Assembly (NCBI GenBank): GCA_946407055.1 | Contig: CAMJMP010000002.1 | Span: forward strand, 7,400 to 71,399 | From: an uncultured Mycoplasmatota bacterium | Lineage (GTDB): Bacteria; Bacillota_I; Bacilli_A; RF39; UBA660 | Direction of reading: 5' to 3' | Length of the DNA: 64,000 nucleotides | In this document: positions 29,449 to 29,520 of the stretch, piece by piece | Layout of the letters: each line of letters opens with the position of its first letter | How positions within the stretch are numbered: position 1 is the first letter of the stretch | The notes under the pieces: model-generated | Seen by the model: the letters and a program-made list of their open reading frames with translations, nothing else | Databases searched by the model: none | Told to the model about the DNA's origin: nothing | Position numbers and translations under genes: made by a program

Positions 29449-29520
29449 TCCCTTATGGTGTAATGGTCAGCACAGGAGGCTCTAACCCTCTTAGTCTGCG
29501 TTCGAATCGTAGTAGGGGTA
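29449..29520 (+). tRNA. amber suppressor tRNA (anticodon CUA), Gln-like body
   Basis: TCCCTTA-TG-GTGT-AATGGTCA-GCAC-A-GGAGG-CTCTAAC-CCTCT-TAGT-CTGCG-TTCGAAT-CGTAG-TAGGGGT-A. The ATGGTGTAATGGTCAGCAC block resembles tRNA-Gln D-arm regions. U1-U72 mismatch. Confidence 0.85.

Follow-up and report, generated by a model that had tools for sequence, protein, structure and literature searches.

A probable amber-suppressor tRNA with a glutamine-type body in a distant crAss-like phage using TAG as a sense codon

The window analyzed here is a 64,000-nucleotide (nt; 64 kb) stretch of contig CAMJMP010000002.1. On its plus strand, a transfer RNA (tRNA) gene with the anticodon CUA, referred to as tRNA(CUA), is located between a minus-strand gene rich in in-frame TAG codons and a long plus-strand block of packaging and structural genes. 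Based on its sequence and on the codon usage of the surrounding genes, tRNA(CUA) very probably represents a functional phage amber suppressor originating from a tRNA-Gln body. The following features were identified around it:

26471..28132, minus strand: TAG-rich gene, 553 amino acids (aa), from translation; 18 TAG, 8 CAA and 0 CAG codons
28779..28809, plus strand: promoter-like motif TTTG-N19-TATATTTG, Bacteroidota-type, from a pattern match; 28 nt before ORF-a
28837..29208, plus strand: open reading frame (ORF) ORF-a, 123 aa, from the ORF list; its stop is TAG (29206)
29201..29437, plus strand: ORF-b, 78 aa, from the ORF list; directly 5' of tRNA(CUA)
29449..29520, plus strand: tRNA(CUA), predicted amber suppressor with Gln-type body, from ARAGORN and Rfam; canonical length of 72 nt
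29593..29624, no strand assigned: G+C-rich hairpin (14 pairs) preceding a T-run; likely terminator, from a terminator scan
29631..30329, minus strand: tail-lysozyme-like gene, 232 aa, 0 TAG; Pfam PF18013 Phage_lysozyme2, E=3.8e-26

The tRNA gene was called by ARAGORN at 29449-29521 (+) with a length of 73 nt and the anticodon cta, and the full Rfam model RF00005 was matched at 29449-29520 (+) with 52.4 bits (gathering score 29, E=2.2e-8). Segment by segment, tRNA(CUA) reads TCCCTTA TG GTGT AATGGTCA GCAC A GGAGG CTCTAAC CCTCT TAGT CTGCG TTCGAAT CGTAG TAGGGGT A. It folds into a standard class-I cloverleaf featuring an 8-nt D-loop with GG, a 4-nt variable loop, the T-loop TTCGAAT and an anticodon stem of five base pairs (bp), to which ARAGORN adds a sixth pair, A26-U44. 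The 7-nt anticodon loop C32-U33-C34-U35-A36-A37-C38 contains U33 and a purine at position 37. At the acceptor end, a U1.U72 mismatch, the pairs C2-G71 and U5.G68 and the discriminator base A73 were observed, and CCA is not encoded. A preliminary description made from the sequence alone had recognized a clean plus-strand cloverleaf with the anticodon loop CTCTAAC at these coordinates, and both ARAGORN and the Rfam model agree with it. Its further statements, that this is the sole plus-strand tRNA and that the U1-U72 mismatch is shared with the tRNA-Trp of the window, were likewise borne out: among 32 tRNAs (30 from ARAGORN and two found by Rfam only), the other 31 (29 and two, respectively) are all located on the minus strand, and the tRNA-Trp at 10441-10513 also possesses U1.U72.

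The ARAGORN output labeled the gene 'Pyl', and this automatic label together with the CUA anticodon would speak for a pyrrolysine tRNA. However, the label follows from the anticodon alone. In pyrrolysine tRNAs, the D-loop is very small, the variable loop comprises 3 nt, the anticodon stem is 6 bp long and the T-loop is non-canonical, whereas the tRNA of the window combines its 8-nt D-loop with GG with a variable loop of 4 nt, a 5-bp anticodon stem and the canonical TTCGAAT. Moreover, no domain of Pyl synthesis and no PylS domain was found among the window proteins scanned, and the TAG positions align with Gln, as detailed below. Pyrrolysine identity was rejected on account of the tRNA structure and the TAG-Gln alignment and is regarded as vanishingly improbable.

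In order to evaluate the likeness of the D-arm to tRNA-Gln, which had been pointed out in the preliminary description, cellular genomes (one per GTDB species) were scanned for the D-arm motif UGGUGUAAYGG..AGCAC in combination with GTTCRA, leaving the anticodon unconstrained. Among the 121 cellular tRNAs carrying the motif, 105 were tRNA-Gln (64 with UUG and 41 with CUG anticodons), which substantiates the likeness and marks this D-arm as typical of bacterial tRNA-Gln. The remaining matches were tRNAs for Gly (4), His (3), Asp (3), Glu (2), Arg (2), Asn (1) and Trp (1). In viral contigs, the same D-arm and anticodon stem, searched with any anticodon, occurred with CUA in 100 cases, with UUG in six, with CCA in two and with UCU in one. 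Furthermore, with a variable loop of 4 nt, the body cannot be of the bacterial Tyr, Leu or Ser type.

Comparison of the acceptor ends revealed both agreement and deviation. Bacteroidota tRNA-Gln (n=30) showed U1-A72 in 30/30, A73 in 29/30, G73 in 1/30 and G2-C71 in 29/30 cases, and tRNA-Gln of other phyla (n=40) showed U1-A72 in 33/40, A73 in 10/40, G73 in 30/40 and G2-C71 in 26/40 cases. Hence, U1 and A73 of tRNA(CUA) agree with Bacteroidota tRNA-Gln, whereas the 1:72 (U.U) and 2:71 (C-G) positions differ; within the cellular tRNA-Gln sample as a whole, U1-A72 was present in 97 and U.U in one of the 105 sequences. A weak 1:72 pair helps GlnRS, and the preliminary description had argued accordingly from the E. 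coli enzyme. The argument points in a reasonable direction, but it takes the wrong organism as its reference: A73 matches Bacteroidota tRNA-Gln and not the E. coli-type G73.

Variation within the phage family of this tRNA was analyzed by means of an alignment of 22 distinct CUA variants from viral contigs, scoring only positions that the search pattern left free. Paired cells amounted to 97%, and 10 of the 21 pairs were altered on both sides. The covariation score reached 0.235 vs 0.078 in shuffles (0/500 shuffles as high), and the covariation was located in the acceptor and T stems. The gene is identical in a near-identical IMG/VR relative (L240), and two relatives with approximately 50% protein divergence (L238 and L239) retain it with U1.U72, C2-G71 and A73, L239 showing the compensatory change G28A/C42U. 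The cloverleaf of tRNA(CUA) is under purifying selection. Twelve of the 22 variants, the most abundant ones among them, lack a pair at position 1:72, and seven have U-A; a hand estimate from variant copy numbers puts the share of contigs with the mismatch at about three quarters. An unpaired 1:72 is typical of the phage suppressors and rare in cellular tRNA-Gln. The 2:71 pair also varies within the phage CUA family (GC in 8, GU in 7 and CG in 5 variants).

As a side observation, three relatives with contigs of 161-170 kb encode a second tRNA(CUA) of 89-91 nt, located 5 nt after the Gln-like one (L074 4697-4785, L027 355-443 and L031 1066-1156). Its variable arm is long, its T-arm equals that of the first copy, and it looks like an insertion-carrying duplicate.

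The use of TAG as a sense codon was deduced from the plus-strand block downstream of the tRNA, which contains the following genes:

30509..63578, plus strand: block predicted to depend on the suppressor, 38 TAG codons, from ORF/codon analysis, PHROGs, Pfam and relatives
34954-37356, plus strand: TerL, 1 TAG
37597-39792, plus strand: portal, 3 TAG (37717, 37945, 38062)
39789-45293, plus strand: 1,834-aa protein, 12 TAG
57636-58049, plus strand: holin-like gene, 2 TAG
59919-61337, plus strand: MCP (major head protein), 0 TAG
within 30509..63578, plus strand: PD-(D/E)XK exonuclease and M15 endolysin, from PHROGs/Pfam

When TAG was read through, the longest ORF increased from 795 to 1,839 aa and the ORF coverage of the region 29.4-64 kb from 0.87 to 0.96, vs only 0.91 with TGA read-through. 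Reading through TAA inflated ORFs on both strands (240 ORFs of at least 100 aa vs 73 under the standard code), an indiscriminate effect that is expected because the sequence is AT-rich. The 27 plus-strand genes contain 38 TAG, 358 CAA and 58 CAG codons and terminate with TAA (20), TGA (7) and never with TAG. As a stop, TAG was found only in ORF-a and in one of 27 minus-strand genes. TerL, portal and the 1,834-aa protein are broken up by TAG only. The packaging and structural genes on the plus strand of this phage use TAG as a sense codon. In total, the window contains 56 in-frame TAGs (38 on the plus strand and 18 in the gene at 26471-28132) and a single CUA tRNA. Substantial minus-strand ORFs between positions 1 and 26154 lack TAG, with few short or 3'-terminal exceptions, as determined from an ORF table in which TAG was treated as sense. 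A 'zero TAG in early genes' count obtained from standard-code ORFs was dropped as an argument, since it is true by construction. Gene calling for this window needs code 15, because the standard code splits TerL, portal and the 1,834-aa protein and loses the 553-aa gene.

The amino acid inserted at TAG was predicted from IMG/VR relatives, namely two close ones with portal proteins 88% identical to that of the window (L005, L006) and two distant ones with 54% identity (L007, L008). Opposite the window TAGs, the close relatives showed CAA in 21, TAG in 5 and other codons in 15 of 41 positions. Since CAA is two substitutions away from TAG, this correspondence does not reflect mutational proximity. 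A likelihood calculation using the substitution patterns of the same alignments identified Gln as the best amino acid, 55 log units ahead of the next ones (Glu, Asn, Lys). In the reverse direction, in-frame TAGs of the relatives were located opposite Gln of the window in 10/19 (close) and 18/48 (distant) cases. Judged from these alignments, TAG corresponds to Gln in this phage, as the preliminary description had suggested.

These data also bear on the alternative that tRNA(CUA) is functional but receives a different amino acid than Gln (Trp, Lys or Glu, the single-base anticodon neighbors) or is charged ambiguously, so that TAG would be no clean Gln codon. The 15 non-Gln positions among the 41 (K, N, E, S and others) would fit this assumption, as would the departure of C2-G71 from the Bacteroidota tRNA-Gln consensus and the second, long-variable-arm tRNA(CUA) of the larger-genome relatives, which indicates that amber decoding may use more than one tRNA. 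However, the 121 D-arm matches include only three Glu/Trp tRNAs and no Lys tRNA, the maximum-likelihood result places Gln far ahead, and 11 TAG positions of the gene at 26471-28132 are nearly invariant Q or TAG. Moreover, passages of Peters et al. (PMC9523058) report that code 15 in other crAss-like phages was confirmed by metaproteomics, with Gln at TAG. Charging with another amino acid is therefore considered quite improbable.

The gene at 26471-28132 (-) is the most TAG-dependent one and harbors the in-frame TAGs nearest to tRNA(CUA). TAG accounts for 69% of its Gln codons, and 12 TAGs are located within the first 100 codons. Its family comprises 62 homologs, 48 of them full-length, and one database entry is 100% identical. 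Across the 48 full-length homologs, the TAG positions are occupied by Q in 560 of 864 cells; the 11 positions mentioned above are invariant or near-invariant Q or TAG in this set. In L238 and L239, most of these TAGs are also TAG at the DNA level. Selection for TAG itself is not claimed, given that TAG-TAG correspondence (10/12 and 13/13) does not clearly exceed the general codon conservation of about 80% at identical residues. The 553-aa protein had no match in Pfam, PHROGs or PDB sequences, and a Foldseek search of its poor AlphaFold model (pLDDT 51.6) against the PDB returned nothing below E=0.25. An HExxxH-like motif (VVHENISH) was noticed in the better-modeled C-terminal half. A later preprint citing Borges et al. 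states that families preferring TAG over CAA/CAG were already known from crAss-like phages. In L074, two further TAG-rich genes were observed (6059-8554 (-), 831 aa, 28 TAGs; 8920-10065 (-), 381 aa, 18 TAGs); both lie between the suppressor tRNAs and the exonuclease/late block, echoing the position of 26471-28132 in the window.

Regarding its transcription, tRNA(CUA) appears to belong to a short unit of its own. The motif at 28779-28809 presumably marks the start of this unit, and ORF-a and ORF-b follow. Suppression of the ORF-a stop would add eight codons, up to TGA at 29232. Counterparts of ORF-a (131-139 aa, 5' of the tRNA) and ORF-b (78-90 aa) were found in L238, L239 and L240, and neither ORF had a match in Pfam, PHROGs or PDB sequences. 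In L238 and L239, one or two TAGs occur in the ORF-a counterparts, which lack CAA and CAG. L240, L238 and L239 also carry a motif sharing the -33 and -7 elements, 670-726 nt upstream of the tRNA. Over the whole window, the promoter-like motif had 11 matches vs 6.0 +/- 2.6 expected, a marginal enrichment (5/100 shuffles as high), and it was relied on only jointly with its conservation in the relatives. The terminator scan yielded three hits in the window vs 0.5 expected. At 29593-29624, the 32-nt hairpin AAGGCGGCTTCGTTGTGAAACGAGGTCGCCTT likely serves as the terminator of the tRNA unit; it shows 100% identity among the window, L240, L238 and L239, while flanking DNA and proteins have diverged by about 50%. 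This conservation is unusually strong for a simple terminator. The hairpin is probably bidirectional and would also serve the convergent minus-strand gene at 29631-30329, which additionally matched PHROGs endolysin / tape-measure lysozyme domains.

The layout of motif, ORF, ORF, tRNA and hairpin recurs in L240, L238 and L239, and the syntenic position of tRNA(CUA) is kept in L238, L239, L240 and L074. Of 100 viral contigs carrying this tRNA, 69 have TerL downstream and in the same orientation (median distance about 80 nt); in none of them was it located on the opposite strand. In the window, the late block starts at 30509, behind a second promoter-like motif (30415-30445). Thus, tRNA(CUA) lies upstream of the late genes but outside their operon, because the terminator hairpin and the convergent gene are located in between. 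On the plus strand, in-frame TAGs begin with the codon at 32447, within an ORF of 73 aa (32399-32620) and 2,926 nt past the tRNA. The preliminary description had placed the tRNA upstream of the recoded plus-strand genes, about 2.9 kb before this codon; the position holds, but the tRNA has its own short unit and TAG is most abundant in a minus-strand gene.

Further promoter-like motifs of the form TTTG-N17-23-TAnnTTTG were detected on the plus strand at 30415-30445, 51538-51569 and 57565-57595 and on the minus strand at 4774-4804, 12289-12319 and 30426-30456. All are correctly oriented and located just 5' of the start of a gene or tRNA, and three of them begin with TTTGATTTT.

Based on these results, the following course of events is proposed. 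The tRNA would be transcribed last in a short conserved unit composed of a host-type promoter motif, two ORFs, the tRNA and a terminator hairpin, and host enzymes would process it and add the unencoded CCA. The host GlnRS would then charge it with Gln by means of the Gln-type D-arm, U1 and the unpaired 1:72, A73 and U35. The charged tRNA would pair with UAG, leading to insertion of Gln at the 38 TAGs of the plus-strand genes for packaging, structure and lysis and at the 18 TAGs of 26471-28132, and TAA and TGA would stay stops. Genes of the tRNA array (minus strand, 1-26 kb) without in-frame TAG would be translatable before the suppressor accumulates, and TAG-containing genes would yield full-length protein only afterwards. 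Charging by the host GlnRS, the timing of expression and a regulatory role are what we infer from the arrangement.

It might also be assumed that tRNA(CUA) is a relic or a host-directed tool causing read-through of host TAG stops, the phage TAGs being read by a factor encoded outside the window. This assumption draws on passages of PMC12386605, where CUA suppressors are reported to persist in some crAss-like phages devoid of amber recoding and are proposed to act on the host, and on statements in the literature, as far as consulted, that some recoded phages have no detectable suppressor. Within the present data, the relative L006 has no tRNA at the equivalent place, and the window itself carries a tRNA with a UUA anticodon without any sign of TAA recoding. 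It is countered by the 56 in-frame TAGs in conserved, essential genes that coincide with exactly one CUA tRNA in 64 kb, by purifying selection with compensatory changes in the tRNA and by the observation that the tRNA heads a TAG-containing module across distant lineages. Furthermore, a host-directed effect could accompany decoding of the phage's own TAGs and would not replace it. Such a role in place of self-decoding is deemed very improbable.

A more far-reaching version of the suppressor reading regards promoter, two ORFs, tRNA(CUA) and hairpin as a conserved, self-contained 'code-switch cassette'. The small proteins would be accessory factors enabling amber reassignment without a phage release factor, the lost 1:72 pair would compensate for the lost G36, and the 18-TAG gene would be the tightest client. 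This version is unlikely. If it were true, the small proteins could, for example, blunt host RF1 or help GlnRS to accept the CUA anticodon, and loss of the 1:72 pair would be an adaptation (unpaired or U.U in 12/22 phage variants vs 1/105 cellular tRNA-Gln).

Several observations weigh against a Gln-charged suppressor acting on the late genes. The 2:71 pair of tRNA(CUA) is C-G, vs G-C in 29/30 Bacteroidota tRNA-Gln. G2-C71 and G36 are identity elements for GlnRS in E. coli, and C2-G71 together with the loss of G36 makes the charging efficiency uncertain. Overall identity of tRNA(CUA) to any cellular tRNA-Gln is only about 70-74%. The sole hints of a Bacteroidota host are A73 and the marginally enriched promoter-like motifs. 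Neither RF2 nor GlnRS was found among 30 window proteins searched against Pfam and 10 plus-strand proteins searched against PHROGs only, although the suppressor would face competition from host RF1. The relative L006 (88% aa identity) lacks the tRNA in the corresponding 2 kb. Finally, the same type of motif precedes the late block at 30415-30445, so that the sequence gives no sign of earlier tRNA expression.

A classical counterpart of a tRNA-Gln body turned to CUA is E. coli supE (glnV44), which inserts Gln at UAG, with GlnRS tolerating the change at position 36. supE differs from tRNA(CUA) in possessing U1-A72, G2-C71, G73 and another D-arm, whereas the tRNA of the window shows a full U.U mismatch and A73. 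Moreover, supE is a weak suppressor and the cell keeps TAG as a stop, whereas the phage of the window essentially abandons it.

Among phages, the closest counterparts are tRNAs annotated as tRNA-Gln in cr60_1 and cr53_1 (Suoliviridae, Loutivirinae) and in cr7_1 and cr124_1 (Oafivirinae), which are 87-94% identical to tRNA(CUA) (RefSeq NC_055891, NC_055889, NC_055895 and NC_055899); the CUA tRNAs of the crAss-like phages cr60_1 and cr53_1 reach 93-94%. In a megablast search of 12 kb around tRNA(CUA) against known phages, the sole match was the tRNA itself. The cr phage tRNAs share the loop CUCUAAC or CUCUAAA, the D-arm, U1 with an unpaired or weak 1:72, and A73. They are also located on the coding strand just upstream of terminase/late genes, those of cr60_1 and cr53_1 directly preceding the terminase. 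In contrast, the tRNA of the window has C2-G71 and no encoded CCA, whereas the cr phages have G2-C71, and it is located about 5.4 kb from TerL in its own cassette with a convergent gene in between, instead of abutting TerL. The TerL and MCP proteins of the cr phages are at most about 29% and 22% identical to those of the window.

The action of TAG-to-Gln suppressor tRNAs on crAss-like late genes has been described in passages of Yutin et al. 2021 (PMC7886860). Zeta-type crAss-like phages, as characterized in parts of PMC7886860 and PMC12386605, resemble the phage of the window in having a large genome, low G+C, a block of many tRNAs, a CUA suppressor and amber reassignment mostly in late genes, with no phage release factor or aminoacyl-tRNA synthetase found. 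Targeted term searches of these two articles met no description of the cassette structure, the invariant hairpin or the TAG-rich neighbor gene. In Borges et al. (bioRxiv 10.1101/2021.08.26.457843), recoding was proposed to delay late/lysis expression, and the host GlnRS to charge the suppressors. The 'code-change module' of Jade phages presented there is similarly a standard-code-compatible suppressor unit before recoded late/lysis genes, but it comprises TrpRS and RF1 and acts on TGA-to-Trp, whereas the companions in the window are two small ORFs, with no synthetase or release factor found among the window proteins scanned.

Since the TAG-to-Gln mechanism and the tRNA family are already published or annotated, tRNA(CUA) represents a clean new example and no new kind. 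It adds a case from a large, poorly sampled crAss-like lineage and leaves the established picture unchanged. The residual novelty consists of the cassette with two ORFs and an invariant hairpin, the family-wide unpaired 1:72, the TAG-rich gene and the co-resident UUA tRNA. The unit of promoter, two ORFs, tRNA and terminator, with its unpaired 1:72, Bacteroidota-type discriminator and TAG-rich neighbor, could be useful for code-switch experiments in a standard-code host.

Affiliation of the phage was deduced from matches in a phage collection, where 83/83 TerL and 19/19 MCP hits were crAss-like or unclassified gut phages. Best matches were the unannotated records MT835470 (TerL 43%, MCP 58%) and MT835492 (MCP 53%), and ICTV-classified Crassvirales reached at most about 29% (TerL) and about 22% (MCP) identity. 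PHROGs terminase, portal and head families were also matched by window proteins. As judged from these sequence matches, the phage is a distant crAss-like phage (Crassvirales). The size of the relatives' contigs (127-178 kb), the G+C content of the window of about 30% and its dense tRNA array suggest membership of one of the large-genome crAss-like groups of Yutin et al. Relatives are represented in ENA by the contigs ERZ27280686:k141_662699, ERZ28613711 scaffold_114 and ERZ27280653:k141_823642. The TerL genes of L005 (2673-3808) and L006 (7295-8430) are broken by an insert of about 1.1 kb, which may be a group I intron or intein; the TerL gene of the window is free of it.

Some members of the tRNA array deserve mention in their own right. 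The tRNA with the anticodon UUA is located at 17414-17484 (-) (Rfam 57.4 bits) and features the loop CU-UUA-AC, A1-U72 and G73. On visual comparison, its body is similar to that of the neighboring tRNA-Thr(CGU) (17261-17332), and BLAST returned only weak matches to phage tRNAs annotated as Lys or Thr. TAA is the main stop of this phage, with no sign of recoding despite the UUA tRNA. The gene is present in the near-identical L240, and IMG/VR pattern scans found no relatives of it. For another crAss group, Yutin et al. (PMC7886860) mention a UUA suppressor of similar kind, termed 'pre-emergent'. ARAGORN and Rfam detected no tRNA-Gln(UUG/CUG) and no tRNA-Tyr elsewhere in the window.

The anticodon loop of the tRNA-like gene at 20042-20113 (-) comprises only 6 nt (ARAGORN 'tRNA-???', Rfam 44.4 bits), and similar tRNAs with irregular anticodon loops are present in L238, L239 and L240. 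The two minus-strand genes detected by Rfam only, at 22987-23087 (46.3 bits, 34-nt insert) and 17573-17689 (42.8 bits, 56-nt insert), have their inserts in the anticodon region and may be intron-containing or disrupted tRNAs. Finally, a 587-aa protein is encoded inside the tRNA array at 12591-14354 (-); it matched phrog_850 'RNA-binding protein' as well as DUF7788, and also DUF2828 with a score under the Pfam cut-off, and is presumably TROVE/Ro60-like.

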